Positions 1 to 16,365 of a DNA stretch of 64,000 nt are shown here, piece by piece (within the stretch, counting starts at the first letter, position 1; the number at the start of each line of letters is the position of its first letter). Made by a program: the position numbers and the translations under genes. Below the pieces are notes generated by a model. That model had not been told where the DNA came from and did no database searches. It saw nothing but the letters and a program-made list of their open reading frames with translations. The stretch spans positions 1 to 64,000 of the forward strand of contig JANRIL010000015.1 of NCBI GenBank assembly GCA_033764955.1, in the 5' to 3' direction. The DNA comes from Cyanobacteriota bacterium (lineage in GTDB: Bacteria > Cyanobacteriota > Cyanobacteriia > Thermostichales > Thermostichaceae).

Positions 1-200
1 GGAGAGGGGAGGCGAGCGGCCACCAATCTGGTAAAATTGGACAAGCATTACAGGGTTGATTTTCCCCTGATACGGTGCGCTTTCGACCGACAACTGGAGT
101 TGACCGACCCGTAGGCCAAGGCCGCAAGTCCCCCGTTTCCAGGGTTGCAATAGAGAGCATTTTCAAAAGCAAGCCTGCTTTGTGGAGAGAACTATCAACA

Positions 201-316
201 GTGGGGCTGGGCGTTTTCCTCACTATAAAAAGCTCGAATCGGCTAACCAGAGGTAAAACTCGCGCCGTGGGGGAAGCCCGCGCCCTATCCTTGCATCGGC
301 GTCGGGAGTACGTCAC
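201..316 (+). mobile_element. IS200/IS605-type right-end / TnpB omegaRNA-like module, copy A (no ORF)
   Basis: GTGGGGCTGGGCG..CCTCACTATAAAA block, bulged hairpin CCCGCGCC/GGCG(T)CGGG and terminal GGGAGTACGTCAC, all shared with 1888-2012 and 49751-49872. Confidence 0.6.
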
Positions 317-548
317 TGAATTGGCAGATAGGTTCTACTAGGCTACCCCCAGTGGTGGCTCTTCTCATTTTGATCCCGAACTTCTTTAAGCTGCCAAACC
401 CAGAAGGAAGGAATGGGATGTTTGAGCAAGACTACGGAGACTAATCTTAATCAGCTCAAGAAAAATTTCCATAGGGAGAATTGTTGGAATGTTGAGGAGG
501 GGATTGCCAAGCGGGATCCCAATCTACTAAGCTGGTATACGCACGCAA

Positions 549-620
<72 letters not shown>

Positions 621-756
621 TTCAGTCCGTTCACTCTTAAACGCTCATCCTTAAACGAAAAGAAAATCCCCCATGATCGGGGGTTGACTGGTTTGCTGTT
701 CATTTTAAAAAACCGAAGAAAAAAGGCTGGAGACGGAATGGCCCAGTCGCCCTTTT

Positions 757-1143
757 CTAGAAGCTTTGGGAACAGTTAACACCTGTATTCAGTGAGGAGT
801 AGCAGGAATAGCTGCCATTGTTAACTGTATTGACATTGGTGGTTACCCCGTTCCCAGGCACATATTGAGAGTTGAGGCGATAGCCCTGTCCAGTGGAGGG
901 GTTGTAGCCTGCGGCTGTCCGTCCAAAGGTACCTGTGCTGGCGTTATAGCCACTGGCGCGCATGTAGCGATTGCCGGTGGTGGGGTTATAACCTGCGGCA
1001 ACTCGTCCGGCGTTGCCAGTGGTGGGGTTATAGCCCGCTACATTGGCGCGCACCAGGGGGGCTGCTTCCGCCATGCCTGCTCCCACAACAGCAACCGCTA
1101 CAACGCCAGACAAGACAAGAGATTTGAGAGTGGATGAAATCAT
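757..1143 (-). CDS. Secreted Gly/Asn/Tyr/Thr-rich repeat protein
   Basis: Signal-peptide-like N-terminus from MISSTLK, then four ~14-aa GYNPTTG-type repeats; start moved to the ATG at 1143. Confidence 0.75.
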   Translation of the reverse strand: MISSTLKSLVLSGVVAVAVVGAGMAEAAPLVRANVAGYNPTTGNAGRVAAGYNPTTGNRYMRASGYNASTGTFGRTAAGYNPSTGQGYRLNSQYVPGNGVTTNVNTVNNGSYSCYSSLNTGVNCSQSF

Positions 1144-1446
1144 GATACTCACCTTAGATTGGGTAGAAGATTGGTCAACGCAACCGTTATCTTGAGGTTC
1201 ATCACCCATCCATGCTTGTGATTGACGAGGGGGATGATGGCCTGCTGTTCTTATCCTCTCCAATTGCTGAGGGGTTTTCGAGTGTACCAGGTCATTGATT
1301 CCCTACCTATCCGCCTTGCTCAAGTCACAGCCTGGGTCATGACCATGGGTAGGCAGGGATCCCTGATCGGGGGTGACTCCGGTCATGCGGTATCGGAGAA
1401 CACTAACTATGGGTATGATGGTAGGGCTGTTTTTTATCTATCGATC

Positions 1447-1779
1447 ATGAGTGCCAACATTGAGTTTAGTCGGGGGATTGTGGAAGTGCCCAGCAATGTT
1501 CGGTTGCTCAAGTCGAAAAACAGCAGTCGCAGCTCGGCTATCTTTCGTTTTGAAGAGGTGAAAGCAGATACCCAAAATATCCTCAGCATGGTGATGACAG
1601 ATGAAGAGGGAGAACTGCAAACACGGGAGTTGCGAGCCAAATTTTTGAATGGGGAATTTAAGGCAATTGAGGTGATCTACGAGATGCAAACCGAAGCGGA
1701 GTGGGATCGCTTTATGCGGTTTATGGAGCGATTCTCGGCAGATCATGAAATGGGGTTGGGGGAAACTGGGGATCCCTAA
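1447..1779 (+). CDS. psb28: Photosystem II assembly protein Psb28
   Basis: IEFSRG..VRL.KSK, DEEGEL.TRE..AKFLNG, EWDRFMRFMERF motifs; start at ATG 1447. Confidence 0.92.
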   Translation: MSANIEFSRGIVEVPSNVRLLKSKNSSRSSAIFRFEEVKADTQNILSMVMTDEEGELQTRELRAKFLNGEFKAIEVIYEMQTEAEWDRFMRFMERFSADHEMGLGETGDP

Positions 1780-1887
1780 ACACTCACCTCACGCAACTGC
1801 CACCCGAATTTCTCGACTCAGATTTGTCCCCGTGCTTTGACGCCAGCCCTTGGCATTGCCTGCCGTAGGCTTGGGTGATGGTGTAGT

Positions 1888-2012
1888 CCGACCAACTTTT
1901 GCTATGGTGTTTCCAAGTGGGGTTGGGCGTCGCCTCACTATAAAACGCGAAGTCCTGAAAAGGATAGAGAAGCCCACACCGCATGTTTGCATCGGTGATG
2001 GGAGCACGTCAC
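1888..2012 (+). mobile_element. IS200/IS605-type right-end / omegaRNA-like module, copy B
   Basis: Near-identical to 49751-49872; bulged hairpin CCCACACCG/CGGTG(A)TGGG; ends in CGTCAC. Confidence 0.65.
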
Positions 2013-2045
2013 AAAGAAGGAACCAACAAATAGGCTCCCCTCCGT

Positions 2046-2543
2046 TTATGACTCATACTCCATCAGAGAGCAGGTTGCTTCAAAATGGGGAGACAAGTCG
2101 GGGCAAAAGTCCAAACTTAAATTGAGCACTTCCGATGCCTGACTGGGCGAACCAAGGAACGCACCCAGATTCTCTGTGAGTTCCACAATCATACTCAGAG
2201 TGGGTAATAGAATAACATTTTGGATTTGAATCAGTGCCAGTGACGTAAAATATATAACTTCAACTCTAGCCTCTTCCACTTTAGTATACGAGTCTATTTC
2301 AATCAGACGATAAAGTTTAATTTGCTCTAGCTTGGGTGGGTAAGAAAACTTAACAGACAGGAATAACTCATTGAGCATCAAAGGGTATTTTGCATCCAGG
2401 CGAACTACCTTGCCCTTCATAGGAGAGAGCGTTGTCGAGTTGTGCGCTACCTGAACAAGTCGCTTTCGCATAGGTTGTTGTTGGCAAGTTAAGCTATCAA
2501 CAGGATAACTAAGAGATAAGCAAAAGAAGATGAGGATCCCCAT
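2046..2543 (-). CDS. Possible hypothetical protein in AT-rich DNA
   Basis: Open frame only; no recognisable motif; start uncertain. Confidence 0.25.
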   Translation of the reverse strand: MGILIFFCLSLSYPVDSLTCQQQPMRKRLVQVAHNSTTLSPMKGKVVRLDAKYPLMLNELFLSVKFSYPPKLEQIKLYRLIEIDSYTKVEEARVEVIYFTSLALIQIQNVILLPTLSMIVELTENLGAFLGSPSQASEVLNLSLDFCPDLSPHFEATCSLMEYES

Positions 2544-2864
2544 TTACATACAGTTAAGCTGTAACTCCGCATAGTAGACACAGATTATGGGGGTACAAGC
2601 AAAACCATAGGATTTCTACTCCACCATTTTCCGTAAAGTTCCCCTCCGATAGTGGGGGTAGAATTCAGGATTATCTAGAAGTAGCCTAAACTAAGACCTA
2701 TGATGATCAAAAGGTCAATTCTGGAATGATAATTAATCTCTTCCTGTCCGATTGCTTTACCTTATGATGATAGCCTAACCAAGGCTTATAAATTTTAAAT
2801 TGACAGCTAGATCTATGGTTTTATCAAAAATAATTAAAAATTTTAAATAGCTAGAGGCATCCTA

Positions 2865-3497
2865 ATGTACGTAGATTTAGAGAAAAAATCGGGAACGAAA
2901 TCTCCATCACCCACTCCAAAACCCATTAATAAGTTTTTGATTTCATTGTTTATTATTTTTATTCTGTGGACTCAAATTGCCTATAACTTTCAGAGGACAC
3001 CTATCCTGCCAGAAATTTCCTATCAAAGTGGATATCATCCGATTGTTAACACGATCATCTATGGATATAACATGGTTGGCTGGAATCTCAGACGCTTAGG
3101 ATGGCTGGCAGGACAAACGAATTATTGGCGGATGTTTGCCCCTGTTGATCGCTTTAATTGGCATATGATTTTTGTTGCTGTTCATCCAGATGGATCGGAG
3201 ACACTTCTACCACTTTCTACTCAATCAGAGCGTAACTTTTGGCAACGCAATTTGATTGATTTCAGAGATGGAAAGTTTCATGTTAATATCTACAGCCATC
3301 CTGAGTATAGGCAACTCTATGCTGATTATCTTTGCCGTACTTATACTCAATCCGAAAATCCTATCTCTAGCATTCGGATTGATTTACAGTGGCAGCCAAT
3401 TTTTTCTCCAGAAGAAGCAAAGATAGCTGGAGCTTTTTGGGGGATGTCATATCTTAATCAGTCTGGAATGGGGGATTTTCCATGCTTAGGCAGCTAA
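2865..3497 (+). CDS. Membrane-anchored partner of HTTM protein (DUF5819-like)
   Basis: N-terminal TM, G.tnyWRMFAP motif, YADYLCR; overlaps the HTTM gene. Confidence 0.7.
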   Translation: MYVDLEKKSGTKSPSPTPKPINKFLISLFIIFILWTQIAYNFQRTPILPEISYQSGYHPIVNTIIYGYNMVGWNLRRLGWLAGQTNYWRMFAPVDRFNWHMIFVAVHPDGSETLLPLSTQSERNFWQRNLIDFRDGKFHVNIYSHPEYRQLYADYLCRTYTQSENPISSIRIDLQWQPIFSPEEAKIAGAFWGMSYLNQSGMGDFPCLGS

Positions 3498-4513
3498 GAA
3501 ATGTTTTGGGTAAGTTTATCTCGACTGTTGATCGTTTTTGGTTTGAAGAACAATCTACACTGAGCTTGGGTGTGTTTCGTGTTTCTCTGGGTCTTTTAAT
3601 CCTATTTATTTTAATCTGTAGCATTCCAAATTGGGAATTTTTTTATGGTGCTTATGGTCCTTACCCACTGTCTGCTCTTAGGGAGGCTATGGGAGGCTAC
3701 ACCTCTGCATTATCGATTAGTTTACTGGCATTTTCTGACCAAAATTGGCTCTTGTGGGCGGTCCTCGGCTTCAACTTAATTTGTGCCACTGCCTTCACGC
3801 TGGGGTGGCAAACACGATGGATAACAATAGCTATGTTTATTGGATGGTCATCCCTCTGTAATCGCAACATTACCCTCATTAATGGTCAAGATCAGATCAT
3901 TAAAATGATGTTGTTCTTGGGATGTTTTGCCCCGATGGGTAACAGCTTATCTATTGATCGTTGGTGGCAGGAATATCAATATCAAAAATCTAACGGACAA
4001 ACTCCAAAACCCTCTGATTTACGGCCCATCTGTAGTTGGCGGCTCATGCAGACCTCTATAGCTATACTCTATTTGTTTGCGGGGCCTTCTAAGTTGGTCA
4101 GTGATGAAGCTTGGAGAAATGGAACAGCACTCTATTATGTTTCTTTGTCGGATCGTTGGTATCGTTTTTATGCTTATGATTTCATGCATAATCTCAATCT
4201 TAATGCCCTTTTTACCTATGCCACCCTGGGTTTGCAGATTAGCTTTCCTTATCTAGTTTGGATAGAACCGATTGGGGAGTTAGTAGTGCTGGCAGCTATG
4301 CTAGCACATGTATCAATGTTTACTCTGCTGAGTCGCTATGTTTTTCACTTTAATCTTGCTGTTTTAGTTAGTTTTATTGTGTTTGTTAAGCCACTACGAT
4401 TTGAGCAGCTTTTTGCTGCTTTCCACAAACTTTGGCCTAGGTTTTTGCTCTTTAAACCTGCCTCGTCTTTGCAACCCTTAGAATCTCCTGAGTCTTATAG
4501 TCATTCCAAATAA
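3482..4513 (+). CDS. HTTM domain membrane protein
   Basis: SLGVFRVSLG, LGWQTR, NGQD, SLSIDRW, W.NGTALYY motifs. Confidence 0.85.
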   Translation: MLRQLRNVLGKFISTVDRFWFEEQSTLSLGVFRVSLGLLILFILICSIPNWEFFYGAYGPYPLSALREAMGGYTSALSISLLAFSDQNWLLWAVLGFNLICATAFTLGWQTRWITIAMFIGWSSLCNRNITLINGQDQIIKMMLFLGCFAPMGNSLSIDRWWQEYQYQKSNGQTPKPSDLRPICSWRLMQTSIAILYLFAGPSKLVSDEAWRNGTALYYVSLSDRWYRFYAYDFMHNLNLNALFTYATLGLQISFPYLVWIEPIGELVVLAAMLAHVSMFTLLSRYVFHFNLAVLVSFIVFVKPLRFEQLFAAFHKLWPRFLLFKPASSLQPLESPESYSHSK

Positions 4514-4588
4514 GAATGGCACCATCTAAGTCTTGATATCGAAGCTTTGAGAGATTTTAGATTTCTCAAACTAAATTGGAATAGCTAT

Positions 4589-4654
4589 TAAGGGAGGAAC
4601 CGGATGGAAAGTCCCCCCTATCAAGGGGAATTTTGGGGGATCCGAGCCTGGGAC
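4589..4654 (-). repeat. Small dispersed palindromic repeat of the cyanobacterial CCCCCTAAATCCCCCTT..AAGGGG type
   Basis: Reverse complement aligns with 50002-50075. Confidence 0.6.
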
Positions 4655-4986
4655 AGGCTGTATTCTTTATTTAAAATAGCTATATTTTTGTCCTTAGATG
4701 GAGAGATCCAGATACAATCTAGAAATTTGTTTGACCACCTACGTAATGCGATTAGAGTCAATCATTACTTATATTTGGCAGAGATGGCTGATATGCAGTG
4801 GATTGCGTGTTTCATTCTGTAGTCATTGAACCCTATTCCAGGATGCGGCGGGATGGAGTGCGGGGGATTCCTTGGGGATGAGCCATGGTTCCTAGGCAGG
4901 CAAGAAAGATAGAGCCATTGCATCCAGAGTTGGGTTTTCGCTTCAAATTGATGACACGTCCTAAAAATTTTCTGAAAGATTTTGCT

Positions 4987-6636
4987 TTATCGGCTCAAGC
5001 CATCCAGAGGTGCAAGGATGTCTGTCCGGGATCCTCTTTGCATGAGTCGCCAGCCATTCACCTCTGCGATCTCTTGGAGATAGCCCAAACGATCCGAGAA
5101 TTGTTGCCACTGCACTGGAGAAACCCACAGGTAATCCGCCGTAAAATCGCCAGCTTGCAGGGCGCTATCATCCACCCAGCGCCCCGGTTGAGGGGTATAA
5201 AAAGCCTGCGCTTGCGCTTGACAAACATCGGCTAACCCACTGCGACCAATATCAATCACCACCTGCTTGGGCAGAAGGGGGGAGGAACGGGCAAAGGTAG
5301 CCATGTCTGGACTAAAGTTACCAAAATCGGGGCGCTGCACTACTGATAGTAAAGTTACCCCACTGGCGAGGAGGAGGGATCCCAGCCAGAGCACCCCAGC
5401 AAAACGCAAAGCCCGCCGCCACAGCCAGATCACGGGTAGACTGCTGTAGAAAAAGCCAATCACTAGCAGAGCCAGCCCATGCGGTTGCAGCATCTCTAGC
5501 CCAGGGATGCCCATGATCACCACTACCCCCAGCCCCCCCAGTAGGACTCCCAACAGCCCTAAACCCCAAGAAATTCCCTGGCTGAGACGGGGAGATTGTC
5601 GCCAATTTAAGGCTTGATCCAAGCAGACCCCAGACAGCAAAGCCAACCAAGGATAGAGTTGTACGCTGTAGTAGTGGGTGCGGGTGGGATAGATCGTCAG
5701 CAGCAGAAATAGCACCAGCGGAAAAGACCAGATCAAAAGGGTGCGGCTAGGTTGCTGGCGAATTAAATGCCAAAATCCGACTAAAGCCAGCACCGTCCAG
5801 GGAAACCCATGCGCCGGGATGTGCCAGAAGTAGTAGAACTGGTTATTGCTGGCATGAAAGGGGGTTGCTCCCAAGTCTTCTACTTTGCCCACCAGGGTTT
5901 CCACCACCCTCCAGCCATATTGCTGGATGGCTAACCCCAGCCAAACACCAAACCCTCCCAGTCCTGCCAACAATCCCCACCAAAATGACCAGGCTGTCAG
6001 CCAGCGCCGCCATTGGCTCAGTAAAAAGGGCAAGGTGGCTGCTCCCGCCAAAAGCACCATGGCGCTCTTCATCAGCAATCCCAACCCAAAAGCCAAACCC
6101 GTCAGCCAAAACCAGCTTTTTGAGCCGCGCCAACCCGCCACCAAGGCAGCTATTCCCAACAATTCCAAAAAGGTCAGCGGAACATCCTGCCCTACCAAAC
6201 GGCCCTGCTGCACCCACAAAAAGCACAAAGGCAGCACCATCATGCCGATTAAGGCCGCCCGCTCCCCCACAAAAGGTCGTCCGATCCAACCGGTCAACGG
6301 AATAGCTGCCAGTGCCGTCAGGATCCCAGGTAGGCGAGCTGACCACTCATGGATCCCTGCCACTTGATAGGCAAAAGCAACCAACCAGGGTAAAAGAGGG
6401 GGTTTCTCAAAAAAAACTTCCCCCAAAAAGGTTGGGGCTACCCACTTCCCAGTTTGCAAAATTTCCCGCGCCATTTGGGCATAAAAACTCTCGTCACATC
6501 CCTCCAAACTGGGAGGATGACCGGAGAGCAAAAAAAGGGGAACCGCTAGCCCCGTCACTAGGAATGCTGATCCCCAAAACCTGATGGCCTGGGGATCCCT
6601 AGAGGTGCGCCGCCAACTGGTTTGCCGCAGAGTCAA
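4987..6636 (-). CDS. ArnT/PMT-family (GT-C) glycosyltransferase
   Basis: DE..YAQMARE, FFEKPPL..W, multiple TM segments. Confidence 0.9.
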   Translation of the reverse strand: MTLRQTSWRRTSRDPQAIRFWGSAFLVTGLAVPLFLLSGHPPSLEGCDESFYAQMAREILQTGKWVAPTFLGEVFFEKPPLLPWLVAFAYQVAGIHEWSARLPGILTALAAIPLTGWIGRPFVGERAALIGMMVLPLCFLWVQQGRLVGQDVPLTFLELLGIAALVAGWRGSKSWFWLTGLAFGLGLLMKSAMVLLAGAATLPFLLSQWRRWLTAWSFWWGLLAGLGGFGVWLGLAIQQYGWRVVETLVGKVEDLGATPFHASNNQFYYFWHIPAHGFPWTVLALVGFWHLIRQQPSRTLLIWSFPLVLFLLLTIYPTRTHYYSVQLYPWLALLSGVCLDQALNWRQSPRLSQGISWGLGLLGVLLGGLGVVVIMGIPGLEMLQPHGLALLVIGFFYSSLPVIWLWRRALRFAGVLWLGSLLLASGVTLLSVVQRPDFGNFSPDMATFARSSPLLPKQVVIDIGRSGLADVCQAQAQAFYTPQPGRWVDDSALQAGDFTADYLWVSPVQWQQFSDRLGYLQEIAEVNGWRLMQRGSRTDILAPLDGLSR

Positions 6637-8567: not shown

Positions 8568-9035
8568 ATGCCAAAAAAGCTGTTGTTTGTTTGTCTAGGG
8601 AATATCTGCCGCTCCCCTGCCGCCGAAAACATTATGGATCACCTGATTAAACAGACGGTGCCTCCCCCCGATATTATTTGTGATTCCGCCGGAACCAGTG
8701 CCTATCACCTGGGTAGCCCCCCCGACCGCCGGATGCAGGAAGCAGCTCAACAACATGGCTATCTATTCACCGGATCAGCTCGTCAGATTCAACCGGAGGA
8801 TTTGCGAGAGTTTGACTTAATTTTGGCGATGGATAAGCAAAACTATCGAGATATTGTGGCTCTCGATCCGCAGCAGCGTTATCGAGACAAAATTAAAATG
8901 ATGACTAGCTACTGCACCCACCACAGCGATTCAGAAGTGCCGGATCCCTATTACGGGGGAGAAGCGGGCTTTCAGTATGTGATCGAGTTGCTGGAAGATG
9001 CCTGTGGAGGACTCTTAAAAAGTTTGTTGTCATGA
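8568..9035 (+). CDS. Low molecular weight protein-tyrosine phosphatase
   Basis: VCLGNICRSP and DPYYG; start at ATG 8568. Confidence 0.93.
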   Translation: MPKKLLFVCLGNICRSPAAENIMDHLIKQTVPPPDIICDSAGTSAYHLGSPPDRRMQEAAQQHGYLFTGSARQIQPEDLREFDLILAMDKQNYRDIVALDPQQRYRDKIKMMTSYCTHHSDSEVPDPYYGGEAGFQYVIELLEDACGGLLKSLLS

Positions 9036-9940
9036 TTGCGCATCCCTTTTGGAGAGCCGTTGCTCAGCACATTAGTGTTGTGATCGGGGATCCCTATACC
9101 ATCCAGAATGTTCGTGGCGTGGGAGGAGGCAGTATCAACAGTGCCTATCAGGTGACGGGACGACGAGCCAACCACCCCCAAGATTATTTTGTGAAATGTC
9201 ATCAGACCAGCCATCTTGCCATGTTTGAGGCAGAAGCCGCTGGTTTGCTGGCTCTGGCTGCCACCCAAACGGTGCGAGTACCGCAGCCCATTTGCTGGGG
9301 ATCCCAGGATGAACAGGCTTATTTGGTGTTGGAGTATCTCGCCTTGGGATCCCTAAAGGCTGACACTGCTGTCCAACTGGGAAACCAATTAGCGGCGCTA
9401 CATCGCCATCACCATACCCAATTTGGCTGGCATCGCCATAACACGATTGGCTCTACCCCACAAATCAATACGTGGCGGGATAGTTGGGTGGATTTTTATC
9501 GGGATCATCGCCTCGGCTATCAAGGGCAATTAGCCCAGAAACAGGGTTTCATGGGGGAGAATTTATCGCGGCGATTCCAGCCATTGCTGGAGCGATTAGG
9601 GGATTTTTTCGTTGATTATCAACCCCAGGCATCCCTACTGCATGGGGATTTGTGGTCGGGGAATTATGGCTGCACGGAGGAAGGGGATCCCGTTATCTTT
9701 GACCCTGCCCCCTATTACGGCGACCGAGAAAGCGATCTTGCCATGACCGAATTATTTGGCGGATTTCCGGCTGATTTTTACCGAGCTTATCAGACCACCT
9801 ATCCCCTCGATGTTGGCTATAGGCGTCGCCAACCCCTCTATCAGCTCTATCACCTCTTTAACCACCTCAATCTATTTGGGGGCAGCTATCTGGGGCAAGT
9901 GAACCACTGCCTAGAGAAATGTTGGCAGGGGCTAATCTAG
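9032..9940 (+). CDS. Fructosamine kinase family protein
   Basis: GGGSIN, LLHGDLWSGN, FDPAPYYGDRE.DLAMTELFGGF. Confidence 0.93.
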   Translation: MIAHPFWRAVAQHISVVIGDPYTIQNVRGVGGGSINSAYQVTGRRANHPQDYFVKCHQTSHLAMFEAEAAGLLALAATQTVRVPQPICWGSQDEQAYLVLEYLALGSLKADTAVQLGNQLAALHRHHHTQFGWHRHNTIGSTPQINTWRDSWVDFYRDHRLGYQGQLAQKQGFMGENLSRRFQPLLERLGDFFVDYQPQASLLHGDLWSGNYGCTEEGDPVIFDPAPYYGDRESDLAMTELFGGFPADFYRAYQTTYPLDVGYRRRQPLYQLYHLFNHLNLFGGSYLGQVNHCLEKCWQGLI

Positions 9941-10019
9941 TTAGGCTTCAGATCGCCAGATCGCTGCCTGTATGTAGACTGGGGAATCTTTATAAGAAAA
10001 GACTTTCATTCTGCCATAA

Positions 10020-10031
10020 ATGTTGCAACAT
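10020..10031. promoter_or_regulatory. Perfect palindrome ATGTTGCAACAT, candidate antitoxin operator
   Basis: 12-bp palindrome about 45 bp upstream of the AbrB-type antitoxin start. Confidence 0.35.
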
Positions 10032-10075
10032 AGGGAACCATAAGGATCATACAGTCATTCACTTGGGAGGCAGTT

Positions 10076-10297
10076 ATGCTGCTAAGCGTTAAAAAACGAG
10101 GTAATTCACTAAGCCTCATTATTCCCAGGGAAATGGCGACTAGTATGAATGTTGACGATGGGGACACCCTTTTTGCGACGAAGACCCCTTCGGGCTATGA
10201 AATCTCAGCATACAACCCTAATTTTGTGAAAAAGATCGAAGCCGCTCGGCGAGGCATGAAGAAGTATCGGAATGCGTTGGTTGAGCTGGCTAAATGA
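10076..10297 (+). CDS. AbrB/MazE-type antitoxin (cassette 1)
   Basis: KRGNSLSLIIP..M...GDTL; KKYRNAL.ELAK C-terminus; overlaps the doc start. Confidence 0.88.
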   Translation: MLLSVKKRGNSLSLIIPREMATSMNVDDGDTLFATKTPSGYEISAYNPNFVKKIEAARRGMKKYRNALVELAK

Positions 10298-10725
10298 TGG
10301 AACCCTGTTGGTTAGACATTCATGATGTCTGTGCCATGCATGGTGAAATTATTGCAGAGTCAGGGGGTACCTCAGGCATACTAAATTCAGGCATACTAAA
10401 TAAGGGTGCTCTTGAGTCAGCTTTAAATAAGCCCATAAATTTCTATTACTATGGTGATGATGTTACTTTATACAAGCTGGCAGCAGCTTATGGCTATGGA
10501 CTTGTAAAAAATCATTGTTTTGTAGACGGTAAGAAGAGAATTGTTCTTATTGCCGTTTATACATTTTTATCAGTCAATGGAATTGAGCTTACAGCTTCAG
10601 AAGTTGATGCAGTCAAACTTTTTCTGTCTTTAGCTGCCAGTCTTGAAACACAAGATATCAGTATGGAGAAATTAGCATATTGGTTGCAAAATAATAGTGA
10701 ACTCCTCTCTAATGAACAAGAGTAG
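10294..10725 (+). CDS. doc: Fic/Doc family toxin (cassette 1)
   Basis: H..II..SGG..G, LESAL..P, LAAAY.YGL.KNHCFVDGKKR (Fic motif variant). Confidence 0.88.
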   Translation: MMEPCWLDIHDVCAMHGEIIAESGGTSGILNSGILNKGALESALNKPINFYYYGDDVTLYKLAAAYGYGLVKNHCFVDGKKRIVLIAVYTFLSVNGIELTASEVDAVKLFLSLAASLETQDISMEKLAYWLQNNSELLSNEQE

Positions 10726-10740
10726 TCCCCTCAGTGCAAA

Positions 10741-10827
10741 GTCTAACCAGGGTTTGCAGCAGACGGACTCAACACCCTGGTTATAACTCGAAAATGTTTA
10801 CTGCCGCTGAAACCCGAGCCGTTAGAC
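10741..10827 (+). other. attC site 1
   Basis: R'' GTCTAAC, arm GGGTTT(G)CAGC pairing with GCTGAAACCC, R' GTTAGAC; 87 bp. Confidence 0.85.
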
Positions 10828-10840
10828 CTCAATTCACGCT

Positions 10841-11656
10841 ATGACTGCGAAACCAAAATCTCTCGAGTCTTACCTCGTCAATGCAACGACGCACAAGACA
10901 TCGCTGAGCGCATATAAAGCTTGTCCGGCAGAGACGTTTCTCACCTACGTCTGCGATGCCTACGACTCCTATGCACATTGCCTCAAGAAGTTCACCAAGA
11001 AGGCGGATGGAACATATAACAAGGACAGCGAAGACAGCCTTCGCCACATCGCCTGCGCGATTCTTGGCACCACGATGGGTCACTTCGAGACCTATCAGCG
11101 CTTTCTCTTCTCGGGAGTTCTTGAACGCTCAACCAACTTCCCAGCATTTGACGTCGACAAGTTTCTCAAGCACTTTGACAAACACTGCGGCGGGGAAGTG
11201 TCGGTCTCGCCGGGCCGTCTCCTCGCCTTTCGTGAACTCGACGCGCCCGTTGGGTTCGTCTTCGCGGATTCACTTAGCGGTTGGCATAACCCAAGACGCG
11301 TGAATGCCTTCTTCAAGGCATTGGGCATAACTCAGGATGTCTTTTCGACCGCAGAAATTGGCGACTTAGAGGTGTTGTGGCAACTACGGCACTCCGTGGT
11401 TCATACGGGAGCATGGCTGACCGTGCCGGACGCAAAGAAGGTCAAGCGGCTATCTTCTTGGCAAGATAAGCCTATCGTCTTTGAATCAACATTCGTAAAT
11501 GCGATGTCTCGTCGCCTGCACAAATTAGTTAATGCAGCCAACACTCGAGTTCTTGCAGACTGCACAACACTTCTGGGGCCAGCACCGACTGCGGAGGTAT
11601 TACAAAGTCTGAGAGACTTTCTCACGGTCAAGTCACCAAAGGTCGTGTGGCTCTGA
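10841..11656 (+). CDS. Hypothetical protein with HEPN-like RxxxxH motif (cassette 2)
   Basis: 271 aa; LRHSVVHTG; starts 14 bp after R' of attC1; stop 1 bp before attC2. Confidence 0.75.
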   Translation: MTAKPKSLESYLVNATTHKTSLSAYKACPAETFLTYVCDAYDSYAHCLKKFTKKADGTYNKDSEDSLRHIACAILGTTMGHFETYQRFLFSGVLERSTNFPAFDVDKFLKHFDKHCGGEVSVSPGRLLAFRELDAPVGFVFADSLSGWHNPRRVNAFFKALGITQDVFSTAEIGDLEVLWQLRHSVVHTGAWLTVPDAKKVKRLSSWQDKPIVFESTFVNAMSRRLHKLVNAANTRVLADCTTLLGPAPTAEVLQSLRDFLTVKSPKVVWL

Positions 11657-11657
11657 G

Positions 11658-11729
11658 GTCTAACCATTCCATCGAGCGGATGCCCAACCGGCTTCGCCGG
11701 TCGGTCACCGCTCATGTCAAACGTTATAC
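11658..11729 (+). other. attC site 2 (canonical geometry)
   Basis: GTCTAAC-5bp-CAT(C)GAGC...CCGGCTTCGCCGG...GCTCATG-6bp-GTTATAC; 72 bp. Confidence 0.92.
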
Positions 11730-11865
11730 AGACTACCCTTTTGGTTGAGGCTTCGGTTTGTTCGCTGCAAGGGCACTTTATGAGTACATAGTTTATGATT
11801 GATGGGTGAAATGTGCCCAGTGAGATAAACTGAACTGTCAATAAAGGACAAGTGATAGTACAAGC

Positions 11866-13062
11866 ATGGAAAAATTAGATTTGCTCAACCAAGTCTTCTC
11901 GCCATCCTCTCCAATTCGATCAAAGGATCTGTTTTTAGGTCGCATTCAACAGTTGCAAGATGTAACAGATGCAATCCGTGAACCAGGTCAACACGCTGTT
12001 TTGTATGGGGAACGTGGTGTTGGCAAAACCTCTCTTGCCAACATTATGGACATCAGTTTTCAAAATGTGATGTCTGCCAAAATAACCTGCAATAGAAGGC
12101 AGAACTTTAAGGATGTATGGGAGGCAGCACTTAGCAAAATAAGATTTGAGTATAGTAGGCAAGGTATAGGTTTTCAAGCTGTTGAGAAAAAGCAAATTGT
12201 CCAATTGGATCTGTTTCTTCCTAACGATCTACAAGAGATTTCCTCTCAAGATGTTCAAAATGTGCTTGAAAAGGTTAATAACTATCTTTTATTTATTTTT
12301 GATGAGTTTGATAGCATTACTGATGACGAAACTAAGATTAGATTTGCAGACACAATTAAAGCACTTTCTGACAACGCCGCGAATGTGACAATATTGATAG
12401 TTGGTATTGCCGATAGCGTAAACGATTTGATTGGTGAGCATTCGTCTTTAGAGAGATGCTTAAAGCAAGTACAAATGCCCCGGATGTCGGATGATGAATT
12501 GAGATCAATTATCGATAAGGGGCTAGATCTCCTGAAAATGGCTATTGATGATGAAGTGGCTCACAAAATTGTAAGGTTGTCACTTGGGTTTCCCCACTTT
12601 ACTCATCTTTTGACGAAATATTCAGCTAAGGCTGCTATTGAAGTAGAAGAAGAAAGGATTGTAGAGGAACACTTTACAAAAGCAATTAATGATTGCATTG
12701 TGAATGTGAATCAAACGGTTCGAGATGCATATCAAAAAGCAACTATTACCTCTAAGGGGGAATCAAAATTTGAAGATGTGATTGGTGCATGTGCGCTTGC
12801 ACGAGTTGATGAATACGAGACATTTGCTACCAACGATTTGATAGAGCCTTTTTATCTAGTAACTGATGAAAGAGTCTCTAGAGAATCGCTGACTTACTAC
12901 TTAGGCAGGCTGTGTAGTGATGAGAGAAATCATCTTCTAGAAAAAGTAGGAACTTCAAAAAATATTAGATATAGATTTAAATATCCCTTAATGAAGTCCT
13001 ATGTGAGGCTCAAGCTAACGCAAAAAGGTAAGTTAGATGGCGAAACTCTAAAGTTGATGTAA
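11866..13062 (+). CDS. AAA+/STAND-like (Orc1/Cdc6-like) ATPase (cassette 3)
   Basis: F.GR..QL, Walker A GERGVGKTS, Walker B FIFDEFD, GFPHFTHLL, wHTH-like C-terminus YRFKYPLM. Confidence 0.88.
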   Translation: MEKLDLLNQVFSPSSPIRSKDLFLGRIQQLQDVTDAIREPGQHAVLYGERGVGKTSLANIMDISFQNVMSAKITCNRRQNFKDVWEAALSKIRFEYSRQGIGFQAVEKKQIVQLDLFLPNDLQEISSQDVQNVLEKVNNYLLFIFDEFDSITDDETKIRFADTIKALSDNAANVTILIVGIADSVNDLIGEHSSLERCLKQVQMPRMSDDELRSIIDKGLDLLKMAIDDEVAHKIVRLSLGFPHFTHLLTKYSAKAAIEVEEERIVEEHFTKAINDCIVNVNQTVRDAYQKATITSKGESKFEDVIGACALARVDEYETFATNDLIEPFYLVTDERVSRESLTYYLGRLCSDERNHLLEKVGTSKNIRYRFKYPLMKSYVRLKLTQKGKLDGETLKLM

Positions 13063-13070
13063 GCACGTCT

Positions 13071-13157
13071 GTATAACAATTCGGGTGCAGCGGATTGACT
13101 GAAGTCGCTTGGGTTGGATGCAAAGATCCCGGCAACCGCTGACCCGAACCGTTATGC
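13071..13157 (+). other. attC site 3
   Basis: GTATAAC, TTCGGGT(G)CAGCGG pairing with CCGCTGACCCGAA, GTTATGC; 87 bp. Confidence 0.88.
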
Positions 13158-13220
13158 CAAATTTTCAACATCAAGATTTTATTTTTGTTAAAATTTCAGG
13201 GTTCTTCACATTCAATAAAT

Positions 13221-13640
13221 ATGGGATCACCAGCAACTTTTCTTCTATTTAACGGCTCAGTGGTCTTGCTTGTCGGACTACTGTGTGGCGCTCCTTATGG
13301 AATCGCAATTGTCAAGAAGAAAAGTGAAGAAGTCATTAGGGCATGGAAATTAGCTCATGGAGCATTGTCTCTCGGTGCAACCACAATGATTGCTATGGCG
13401 AGCGGATTTAGTATCCTTAAATCTAATGAAAACACCTTGTGGGGAATTGCTATTTCCTATATTGTCTCAGGATATGGATTCTGCTTTGCTTTAACTTTAG
13501 AACCATTTACCGGAGATAGGGGTTTATCTTGGACAGGAACATCACTCAATAAGATGGTATATGTCGGCAATATTTTAGGAGCAGTTAGTTCTCTTATTGG
13601 AACTTTAATATTGGTTTGCGCTTCATATAACTCTATGTAA
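13221..13640 (+). CDS. Small 4-TM membrane protein (cassette 4)
   Basis: Four hydrophobic segments, GLL.G.P..RAW.LAH; start at ATG 13221. Confidence 0.75.
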   Translation: MGSPATFLLFNGSVVLLVGLLCGAPYGIAIVKKKSEEVIRAWKLAHGALSLGATTMIAMASGFSILKSNENTLWGIAISYIVSGYGFCFALTLEPFTGDRGLSWTGTSLNKMVYVGNILGAVSSLIGTLILVCASYNSM

Positions 13641-13645
13641 AAGAA

Positions 13646-13731
13646 GCATGACAAATCAGTGAACCTGATCATATGCTAAAGTGTTCCTGTCATCCAAAGT
13701 CAATGACGGCGAGTGAGTTCAACTGTTGTAC
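13646..13731 (+). other. Degenerate attC site 4
   Basis: GCATGAC (one mismatch to the complement of GTTATGC) 5 bp after the stop; GTTGTAC 86 bp later; inner arms poorly paired. Confidence 0.55.
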
Positions 13732-13858
13732 TGCTTTGGTTGAAGGTGTTAGCAGTTTTGAGAGTTGGTCGGCTGAAAATAAAAAGTGCAAAAGTGCAAA
13801 ATATAAAACGACAACCTACAATCAAAATAGGATCTAAGTTCAAACGAGATTTTTGTCA

Positions 13859-14071
13859 ATGCCGGAGCGGTTAGAAGAACGGGTAGCCCATTTAGAAGCC
13901 GAGGTTGCACAGCTTAAAAATAAAGTAGAAAATGATTTGCCTTCCAGACCTTGGTGGGAGAAAATTGCTGGGACATTTTCTGCCAATCCAGCTTATGATG
14001 AGGCGATGCGATTGGGGAGCGAGTATCGTAACTCTCTCCGCCCAAGTTCCACAGAGCCATCTGAAAAGTAG
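13859..14071 (+). CDS. Putative antitoxin (cassette 5)
   Basis: LEERVAHLEAEVAQLK..PWWEKIAGTF..NPAYDEAMRLG.EYR, directly upstream of a vapC-like frame. Confidence 0.8.
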   Translation: MPERLEERVAHLEAEVAQLKNKVENDLPSRPWWEKIAGTFSANPAYDEAMRLGSEYRNSLRPSSTEPSEK

Positions 14072-14491
14072 ATCTATATTCTCGATACGGATCACCTCAG
14101 CGTTATAGATCGTGGAGGAGCCAATGCACAACGTCTATTGCAAAGACTAGCAAGCATTAATCCTACTCAAGTAGCAACGAGTATCATTAGCTATGAAGAG
14201 CAAATGCGAGGTTGGTTGAGTTACGCAGCTAAAGTTCAGACTATTGAAAAATAGGTTAAAGCTTACAAGGAACTAAAGCGACAATTAACTAATTACTGCA
14301 CAATTCCAATTATCGATTTTGATGAGCAATCAGCCCAAGAATTTCAATGTCTCAAGAAGTTGTATCCACAACTTGCCACAATGGACTTAAAAATCTCCTC
14401 AATTGCGCTGGTGAATCAGGCAGTTCTATTGACTCGGAACAGTTGTGATTTTGGACGCAGCATAGGTTTACCCGTTGAAGATTGGATGTGA
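14072..14491 (+). pseudogene. vapC: VapC/PIN toxin pseudogene (cassette 5)
   Basis: Frame reads IYILDTDHLS..EEQMRGW..K*VKAY..MDLKISSIAL..LLTRN..DF..GL.VEDW; TAG at 14252-14254; first codon is ATC, not ATG. Confidence 0.85.
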
Positions 14492-14513
14492 AAATTTTAA
14501 ATTCTCGACAGCA

Positions 14514-14602
14514 GTACAACAACGCTGTTGCAGGAGACGGAATGAAGCCTCTAGTGTGGATGCAAAAATCAAATACCGCCGCTGAAACCCAAGCCGTTGG
14601 CT
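14514..14602 (+). other. attC site 5
   Basis: GTACAAC...CGCCGCTGAAACCCAAGCC-GTTGGCT; sequence-related to attC1 and attC3; 89 bp. Confidence 0.8.
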
Positions 14603-14649
14603 TCCTGGGCTAGGATCCTCAAGAGACTGGTTGGCATGACCCAAAGCTT

Positions 14650-16365
14650 ATGTTAGAACACGACATTGTCATTGTGGGAGGAGGGTTAGCGGGCTGTCGA
14701 GCCGCTCTGGAGGCCAAACGACGGGATCCCCGACTCAACCTAGCCCTTGTAGCCAAAACTCACCCGATCCGCAGCCATTCCGTCGCGGCGCAGGGGGGAA
14801 TTGCAGCAGCCTTACAAAATGTTGATCCTGAGGATAGCTGGATAGCCCATGCTTTTGATACGGTCAAAGGCTCTGACTATCTGGCGGATCAAGATGCTGT
14901 CGAGATTCTCACCCGCGAGGCTCCACAGGTAATCATTGACCTGGAACATCTGGGAGTGCTGTTTTCCCGCTCAGGGGATGGGCGGATCGATCAACGGGCT
15001 TTTGGTGGACACAGCCACAAACGCACTTGTTATGCCGCTGATAAGACAGGTCACGCTATTCTGCATGAACTGGTGAATAATCTGCGCCGTGTTGGGGTTC
15101 AACTCTACTCGGAGTGGTATGTCATTGAAATCATTCTGGAGGACAACGAAGCCAAAGGGCTGGTCATGCTGGAACTCCCCACCGGACGGCTGGAAGTGGT
15201 GCGCGCCAAGGCGATTTTGCTAGCTACTGGAGGGTACGGGCGGGTCTATAACACCACCTCCAACGACTATGCTTCCACAGGGGACGGACTGGCGATGGTG
15301 GCACGGGCGGGTTTGCCCCTGCAAGATATGGAATTTGTTCAGTTTCATCCAACCGGGCTATACCCCGTCGGTGTCTTGATCTCAGAGGCGGTGCGGGGCG
15401 AGGGAGCTTATCTGATTAACCAGCAGGGGGAGCGCTTTATGGCCACCTATGCCCCCAGTCGCATGGAATTAGCCCCCCGCGATATTACGTCCCGCGCGAT
15501 TGTCAGCGAAGTACGAGCGGGGCGAGGCATTCAGGGCAAGGATTATGTCTATCTGGATCTGCGGCACATGGGCTATGACAAGATCCACAGCAAAGTGCCG
15601 TTTGCCTGGGAAGAAGCTCACCTGCATCTGGGCATTGATGCGGTGGTTGAACCCATTCCGGTGCGACCCACAGTGCATTACTGCATGGGTGGGATCCCGG
15701 TGACGGTGGATTGCCAGGTGTTGCGCTCAGCCGAACAAAGGGTAGAAGGCTTATTTGCGGCTGGGGAAACCGCCTGCGTGTCGGTGCATGGCGCGAATCG
15801 CTTGGGCAGTAATTCGTTGTTGGAATGTGTAGTCTATGGGCGACGGGCGGGAGCCAAGTTGGCGGACTATGTTCAGGATCGTACTCTACCCAGCCTGCTA
15901 GAAGCCCAGTACCAAGAGAGGGTACAAAGCCGCCTCCGTGATCTACTGGAACGCACAGGCGATCTACGCATTGACCAGATTCGCCGCCGCTTTCAAGACA
16001 GCATGACCGATCATTGTGGGGTCTATCGCACTCAGGAGGTGATGCAAGCCGGCATCCAAACCTTGCAAACCATCCAGCAGGACTATCAGCAGCGTTTGCG
16101 CTTGGATGATCGCGGCCAGATCTGGAATACAGAATTGACGGAAGCCCTGGAGTTGCAGAACCTACTGTTGGTGGGACAGATCATTTTGGCTAGCGCCCTA
16201 GGTCGGCAAGAAAGTCGAGGATCCCATGCCCGCGAAGATTATCCACAGCGAGATGATCAAACCTTTTTGCGTCACACTCTAGCCGCTATGGAAGAGGGAT
16301 CCGTAACCCTTCGTGATCGCCCCGTGGTGATCCAGCAGTTTCAACCCCAAGAACGCAAATACTAA
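14650..16365 (+). CDS. sdhA: Succinate dehydrogenase/fumarate reductase flavoprotein subunit
   Basis: [33 protein letters not shown]. Confidence 0.95.

Follow-up and report, generated by a model that had tools for sequence, protein, structure and literature searches.

A five-cassette integron array without an integrase behind a fructosamine kinase gene of a cyanobacterium, and its probable origin at a secondary site

Five gene cassettes between two host genes

The window analysed here comprises 64,000 nt (positions 1 to 64,000, forward strand) of contig JANRIL010000015.1, termed C28, from assembly GCA_033764955.1 of a Cyanobacteriota bacterium of the family Thermostichaceae; the assembly is a 3.8 Mb draft in 48 contigs, in which arrays at contig ends may join up. 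Internal to this contig, an array of five integron gene cassettes directly follows a housekeeping gene, the host fructosamine kinase gene (9032 to 9940; PF03881, E 2.8e-111), and precedes the host succinate dehydrogenase flavoprotein gene sdhA (14650 to 16365; PF00890 and PF02910). All features described below lie on the plus strand unless stated otherwise. A first-pass annotation, made from the letters of the sequence, had placed an attC-like inverted repeat just after each of five genes, and all five repeats were recovered where it had put them, at 10741-10827 (attC1), 11658-11729 (attC2), 13071-13157 (attC3), 13646-13731 (attC4) and 14514-14602 (attC5), their quality being unequal in covariance scores and folds.

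The region is a genuine attC-site cluster without integron-integrases (CALIN), and as such an ordinary representative of a type of mobile gene array that is already known. Such a cluster consists of two or more same-strand attC sites within 4 kb with no integrase nearby. Four of the five sites are recognized as attC, with 32 to 63 bits in the covariance model described below, and contig C28 contains no PF00589 or TIGR02249 match. A complete integron would have intI and attI adjoining the first cassette; here the kinase coding sequence reaches the crossover point and the attI palindrome is absent. The initial assignment as a CALIN was therefore correct, and so was the statement that no tyrosine recombinase is encoded, inasmuch as the contig has no PF00589 match, except that an internally deleted intI relic had escaped notice at 4673-4964. 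An Rfam search of positions 9000-15500 returned zero matches.

The absence of the host motif GGGATCCC from the array, reported in the same annotation, was also borne out. At the genomic density of 1.29 motifs per kb it corresponds to a Poisson P of 0.0024, and only 16 of the 4868 gaps between such motifs genome-wide are as long as the array. Two six-base pieces of the canonical HIP1 motif, which this host seldom uses, lie in the leader of cassette 1 (9950-9963) and hint at another cyanobacterium as the donor. GGGATCCC itself is described as a HIP1 variant of Yellowstone Synechococcus strains (PMC5861425). A promoter scan gave 9 sites, compared to 10.9 expected.

Three sound attC sites, a marginal one and a dead one

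To avoid circularity, attC-like sites outside the window were gathered throughout the genome by a scan for spacers and pairing, and 28 of them, aligned as bottom strands, were used to build a covariance model (R1). In the source alignment of R1, 6 of the 7 L-box pairs have changed on both sides, and none of 500 shuffles reached its score. On the bottom strand R1 scored attC3 at 63.3, attC1 at 48.6, attC5 at 42.9 and attC2 at 32.1 bits, while the best of 8 matches elsewhere in the 64 kb reached 12 bits and top-strand scores did not exceed 14.6. The site attC4 gave no R1 match at E<=5 and was also missed by an nhmmer profile of 34 outside sites.

We also calculated the probability of the recombinogenic bottom-strand fold, defined as the fold in which the R and L boxes are forced to pair. 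For sites 1 to 5 it was 0.025, 0.49, 0.89, 4e-11 and 1e-4, respectively, compared to 0.025-0.89 for 14 of 15 comparison sites and 2e-7 for the remaining one. The R''/L''/L'/R' hairpin with an extrahelical base thus holds for sites 1, 2 and 3, with 7/7 paired L-box positions; it is marginal for attC5 and absent from attC4.

The individual sites differ in type as well as in state. The best site of the array is attC3 (spacers 6/6), which is 80% identical to a site of the integron on contig C9 of the same genome. With spacers 5/8, attC1 folds weakly and is 75% identical to a C9 integron site. The well folded attC2 (72 bp, spacers 5/6, z -5.7) belongs to a short, non-cyanobacterial type; 67 of its bases align with part of a Methylibium plasmid at 85% identity. 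Decay is evident in attC4, which has GAC for AAC and an L box paired at 4/7 positions, and partly in attC5 (spacers 6/8, L box 5/7), whose final six bases fail to match the R'' of the site and were taken as host DNA. Because attC4 and attC5 hardly fold, only cassettes 2 and 3 are likely to be excised singly.

Cassette borders coincide with G|TT and cassette 2 is a mobile unit

In the circular form of a cassette its two ends should pair, and the matching ends noticed at first proved to be real and longer than noted, with 11 of 11 bases in cassettes 2, 3 and 5, 8 of 9 in cassette 1 and 6 of 7 in cassette 4. Beyond the GTT itself, cassettes 2, 3 and 5 pair at 8/8 positions with their own ends, non-cognate pairs reaching at most 6/8.

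Cassette 2 (10822-11723; 902 bp, GC content 0.53) was found in ~99% identical copies with other flanks in two unrelated metagenome runs. In run X1, from groundwater, a contig corresponds to 10820-11687 with 11 differences in 868 bases, and 48 other letters precede position 10820. In run X2, from a farm, three contigs match the cassette with 1 to 3 differences each, and one of them departs at 11726. Both break points fall on the G|TT borders, and the two runs cover neither cassettes 3 to 5 nor the body of cassette 1. Cassette 2 is thus a recently acquired, mobile unit, the only one of the five cassettes seen with G|TT bounds in other contexts. At loci of its homologues, 7 of 34 gave R1 matches at E<=1, two of these directly after the gene; a heuristic attC score on the homologues overlapped the control distribution.

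Both toxin genes carry lesions and three other genes look intact

Two of the cassettes contain toxin-antitoxin (TA) operons. Cassette 1 (9941-10821; 881 bp, GC content 0.42) has its own leader with a 12-bp palindrome (10020-10031), a likely operator; similar palindromes precede homologous operons. Its antidote gene of the Doc-partner family (10076-10297; TIGR02609, 58.8 bits, cut-off 55.9) is intact. The following doc toxin gene (10294-10725; TIGR01550, 59.4 bits, over the cut-off) has a Lys codon at 10531-10533, where the catalytic loop has a conserved Asn. When the best 120 of 335 matches were compared, 119 of them being other proteins, this Asn was present in 117 of the 119, the other 2 lacked the motif and none had Lys. 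Furthermore, Doc carries a private in-frame duplication of 15 bp (5 residues) at 10372-10401, and the toxin is probably inactive.

The second TA operon, in cassette 5, begins with an intact antitoxin gene (13859-14071, 70 aa); in homologous operons, 70-77% identical in DNA, it likewise stands before VapC. The adjoining VapC (PIN) toxin gene (14072-14491; NF047863, E 3e-9 with the stop translated as X) is a pseudogene: it has no start codon at 14072, where 10 of 10 homologues reaching that position have ATG, and its frame is interrupted by a stop (14252-14254) at a place where a Gln codon is present in 9 of the 9 homologues that extend so far. Judged by these lesions VapC is broken and the cassette 5 toxin appears dead. 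A functional type II TA system has both toxin and antitoxin intact, and neither TA cassette appears to combine the two. A related TA cassette with an intact VapC is present in the C9 integron array.

The gene of cassette 2 (10841-11656) encodes a 271-aa protein that is a candidate stand-alone HEPN-type RNase. Its RxxxxH motif is intact (R183, H188) and invariant in 27 of 27 aligned sequences, 23 of which match PF18735 at E<=0.01; the protein itself scores 18.9 bits, below the 28.4 cut-off. The predicted structure has a predicted local distance difference test score (pLDDT) of 93, compared to 35 for a single-sequence fold. Its best fold matches are HEPN toxins (Z 8.1-8.2), and the top 8 matches are HEPN or HEPN-like (Z 6.8-8.2, root-mean-square deviation 3.3-4.5, 117-137 residues), Z values of this size being common for helical bundles. 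Foldseek with the confident model gave no match at E<=0.001, and in scans with a defence library and profiles the protein passed no curated defence family.

Cassette 3 encodes a STAND/Cdc6-like ATPase (11866-13062, 398 aa; PF20703, 40.2 bits, over the cut-off) with intact Walker A and B motifs, a full-length nearest homologue of 94% identity and a weak PADLOC match to PDC-S59 over 140 of 428 positions. The product of cassette 4 (13221-13640) is a hydrophobic protein of 139 aa, by prediction a membrane protein; PF26512 (short name SOI; Atlas 0.94) was found in 89 of the 89 matches listed, the nearest other sequence being 81% identical, and the defence library gave no match. Besides the antitoxins, the putative HEPN RNase, the ATPase and the membrane protein are the only cargo that looks intact. 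Candidates for a defence function would be cassette 2, by its HEPN RNase motif, and perhaps the STAND-type ATPase of cassette 3.

The left junction coincides with the kinase stop codon

The kinase gene is native up to its stop codon. In 28 of 29 relatives the stop lies at most three residues from the same place, in 14 exactly there. At the left junction (9938-9946) the G of the TAG stop (9940) is at the same time the G of G|TT, and this GTT is the sole one between the kinase stop and the palindrome at 10020-10031. As host coding DNA runs to the crossover, there is no room for attI at this junction. No attI palindrome was detected in the window at up to 5 mismatches. A crossover at the last base of the kinase stop codon together with the lack of attI points to insertion at a secondary (attG-type) site, for which the left junction is a candidate.

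The right flank (14597-14649) is host-like, with a GC content of 0.53 and one GGATCC. It contains a -10-like hexamer (14611-14616); 10 of 24 relatives have a similar one at a distance of 25-56 bases from the start of sdhA, which is weak evidence. The GWT crossover is thus bounded by host DNA on both sides, on the left by a host coding sequence and less firmly on the right, where 53 bases are available.

A hotspot at the 3' end of the kinase gene was considered and rejected, since none of 40 loci had an attC match at the kinase stop; the search covered the kinase regions of 39 genomes, mostly with 1.5-kb flanks, and one extra stretch of genome G034. In G034 (L216:10033-13786), an island rich in insertion sequences ~3 kb downstream of the kinase gene contains a VapC TA cassette together with two attC sites, but its junction is different; we take the proximity to be a coincidence. 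A metagenome scan for kinase relatives yielded 65 pattern hits, none of which was confirmed. A preference of secondary sites for TAG|TT was likewise rejected: it was seen at 0 of 7 well-called junctions and TG|TT at 5 of 7, small numbers from a tally made away from intI pieces in which one attC-end call was left out and many junctions were uncallable.

Two intact integrases are encoded elsewhere in the genome

Two full-length IntI proteins, with 463 and 451 bits, exceed the TIGR02249 cut-off. They are encoded on contigs C9 and C38, and both have the catalytic motifs and the integron-specific insertion. Each belongs to an integron with its own array and an attI, recognizable by a 21-base palindrome before G|TT. 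Among attI-like sites upstream of intI in cyanobacteria, an AT-rich left box is common to seven (L001, L002, L118, L119, L120, L126 and L131; read by eye from 21 loci), and 5 of these 7 have TAG before the crossover.

With 150 of 827 candidates scored, R1 counted at least 75 attC sites (E<=0.01) in this genome, in 47 clusters of which 32 are single sites; many are decayed. Two intact integrases and this number of attC sites in one genome imply that an integrase able to act in trans exists, as had been proposed from the array alone; among the array's own sites, attC1 and attC3 are most like those of C9. Across the 41 cyanobacterial genomes searched, 35 had R1 matches and 20 an IntI over the cut-off. 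Only G040 was named above the present genome by attC count, the model being biased to the latter.

The genome also contains many decayed intI pieces, one of which is the relic in the window (4673-4964), where ~48 N-terminal codons are fused to DNA that follows intI elsewhere in the genome. It matches IntI residues 33-79 with 44% identity in tblastn (E 1.5e-5) and loci on C38, C4 and C11 with 71-76% identity in blastn. Its downstream unit (profile 110 bits) has 10 copies in the genome, and the relic is closed by a terminal-repeat-like motif. It lies ~5.1 kb upstream of the array and points towards it, closed on the array side and with 8 host open reading frames in between. On the basis of this orientation and the intervening frames we rejected the relic as a part of the array. 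No attC was found in window positions 1-5200.

The array probably arose by insertion at a secondary site

Altogether, we favour an origin of the array by secondary-site insertion through an IntI encoded elsewhere in the chromosome, and consider this probable. Acting in trans, IntI would join a folded bottom-strand attC to the chromosomal G|TT at the last base of the kinase stop. The insertion may have been tolerated because the kinase gene and the region upstream of sdhA were left whole. The five cassettes would have come in together on a multi-cassette circle, or the array would have grown through later insertion at its own attC sites, with growth into attC1 or attC2 after seeding suggested by the age pattern of the cassettes. 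The latter route has a slight advantage, since cassettes 2 and 3, the freshest, are central and the damaged ones (1, 4 and 5) lie at the ends. En-bloc insertion with later selected loss of the toxins fits nearly as well; serial growth on the one hand and en-bloc or mixed arrival on the other are each only a tentative choice, and we hold them equally plausible. Expression is predicted to depend on transcripts reading through from the phosphatase-kinase genes and on the cassette 1 leader.

Such events have precedents. Cassettes can be inserted by integrases at GWT, which has been proposed as a source of single cassettes and small CALINs (bioRxiv 10.1101/2022.09.11.507474); secondary insertion is also listed among CALIN origins in PMC4889954. 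A complete integron takes up new cassettes at attI, which places them first, and insertion at attC occurs when attI is deleted (bioRxiv 10.1101/2020.11.24.395434).

Several observations weigh against this origin. On a fixed 8-base measure the left border of cassette 1 scores just 5/8, and an automatic scan picked a rival border at 10311, inside doc; we rejected the latter, as it falls in conserved doc coding sequence and would cut off the doc start and the antidote. The four bases before the left crossover are those of the C38 attI, so that this junction could hold an attI remnant. Among 31 relatives in which the kinase gene and sdhA could both be located, every one of another genus, none has the two side by side, and the surroundings of both genes differ between genera. 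Insertion into a housekeeping locus, as first described, is suggested by the junctions but finds no counterpart in the gene order of the relatives. An intI relic lies 5 kb away. The age ranking is based on nearest database relatives and lesion counts rather than dated strains, and as toxin loss may be selected it may not measure age. Moreover, homologous TA operons of other cyanobacteria are mostly free-standing (R1 match at 1 of 16 loci), and R1, which is tuned to this genome, matched at 0 of 63 loci of more distant cassette 3 homologues.

Some of these observations would fit a piece of a complete integron that was parted from intI and attI by deletion or rearrangement, so that one of the junctions is a rearrangement scar. 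The many decayed intI pieces, including the one 5 kb upstream, the separation of kinase and sdhA in 31 of 31 relatives and the four bases shared with the C38 attI are consistent with this scenario, and Cury et al. (PMC4889954) list intI loss and rearrangement among CALIN origins. However, the kinase frame ends at a conserved place, up to the crossover base, with no attI palindrome, the relic is closed by a terminal motif on the array side with 8 host open reading frames between, and two separate rearrangements, each ending at G|TT, would be needed. We therefore regard it as unlikely. A still less probable reading is that of the first-pass annotation, in which the array functions as a selected TA and defence store, locked in place by its two TA cassettes. 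Two TA operons do flank three cargo cassettes, the HEPN motif of cassette 2 is intact, the STAND-type ATPase of cassette 3 has a weak PADLOC candidate match, and integrons commonly carry TA and defence cassettes (bioRxiv 10.1101/2024.07.02.601686). Against this, two changes inactivate VapC, Doc has a duplication in addition to its unique catalytic-loop change, while the two antitoxins are intact, the defence library gave no match for cassette 4 and cassette 2 passes no curated defence family. With private lesions in both toxin genes and two decayed attC sites, the proposed function as a store was not upheld.

A last reading takes the repeats for inverted repeats of chance or terminator-like origin, in an island acquired horizontally by another route. 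In its favour are attC4, which fails every test, and sites 1, 4 and 5, whose unconstrained minimum-energy folds differ from the attC hairpin. The reading is refuted by the four sites scoring far above background in the independent model R1, by the 11-base cognate ends of three cassettes and by the copies of cassette 2, which moves as a unit; there is also no terminator-like site on the plus strand.

Within the favoured secondary-site origin the present state of the array can be read in two ways. To judge by its genes and sites it now looks half decayed, as both toxins appear dead and attC4 and attC5 hardly fold. It may also be a living satellite, seeded without attI and still taking foreign cassettes into its internal attC sites by means of IntI in trans, a tentative proposal which we think somewhat doubtful. 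If it were true, cassette 2 would be a very recent arrival from a non-cyanobacterial pool, and the ~47 clusters would form a distributed integron whose orphan arrays are active sinks and not remnants.

Comparison with known integron systems

CALINs (PMC4889954, 2016; IntegronFinder 2.0, PMC9024848) share with the array same-strand attC sites and the lack of a close intI. Their mean size is given as 5 attC sites in PMC4889954 and as almost 6 in PMC9024848, and half of them share a replicon with an IntI. The present array is of the same kind, differing in that its left crossover coincides with a host stop codon and in being one of 47 clusters of its genome. With the attG sites and single attC sites lacking integron-integrases (SALINs) of Loot et al. 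(bioRxiv 10.1101/2022.09.11.507474) it has in common a GWT crossover in the chromosome without attI structure. Those concern IntI1-3, E. coli and single cassettes, whereas here there are five cassettes and a cyanobacterial IntI, and the right-hand CRGM motif of the E. coli attG hotspots is absent from positions 6-9 of the right flank. The C9 and C38 integrons belong to the same family of 86-88-base attC sites as the array, which unlike them has no intI, no attI palindrome and damaged toxins. Cyanobacterial attC sites are numerous enough to have received a model of their own (Ghaly et al. 2021, PMC8352920).

The cassette 2 protein has the RxxxxH motif of HEPN toxins (PDB 7ae2, 5yep, 8xdj) and, judged by its model, may have their helical fold. 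It differs from them in that the cassette has no MNT antitoxin, in an identity of 6-10% and in a Pfam score below the cut-off. It may be likened, by motif and putative fold, to the stand-alone HEPN defence cassettes termed Esos (bioRxiv 10.1101/2024.07.02.601686).

CALINs may be integron remnants or products of insertion at secondary sites, and the array offers a clean candidate junction for the latter. Its internal age pattern is testable for growth without attI. The near-identical HEPN-candidate cassette in groundwater and farm metagenomes shows that cyanobacteria draw on a general cassette pool. Our literature search, in which subscription literature was thinly covered, retrieved no paper devoted to dispersed cyanobacterial CALINs.

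Other integron-related features of the genome

In 6 of the 47 clusters a terminal-repeat-like motif comes after the final attC, and the DNA downstream of intI pieces terminates in a related one. The array behind the kinase gene has neither this motif after its last attC nor an intI piece before its first cassette. Terminal motif and downstream unit outline a family of small integron-carrying elements in this genome, with presumably IS5-like ends.

In the neighbourhood of the intI relic, two short dispersed repeats (~93 and ~86 bases) with many genome copies occupy the expected place of its attI (4496-4675). To the left of the relic is a low-GC island (2000-4520; GC content 0.38-0.42) with plus-strand genes of 210 and 343 aa and a minus-strand gene of 165 aa.

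Elsewhere, single cassettes at C13:23277-25910 and C45:11969-14594 both measure 2548 bases from junction to attC at different sites, and possibly represent one cassette family inserted twice. At C9:2536-2647 the 3' half of a second attC comes directly after a first one, the cassette in between having collapsed to ~25 bases.

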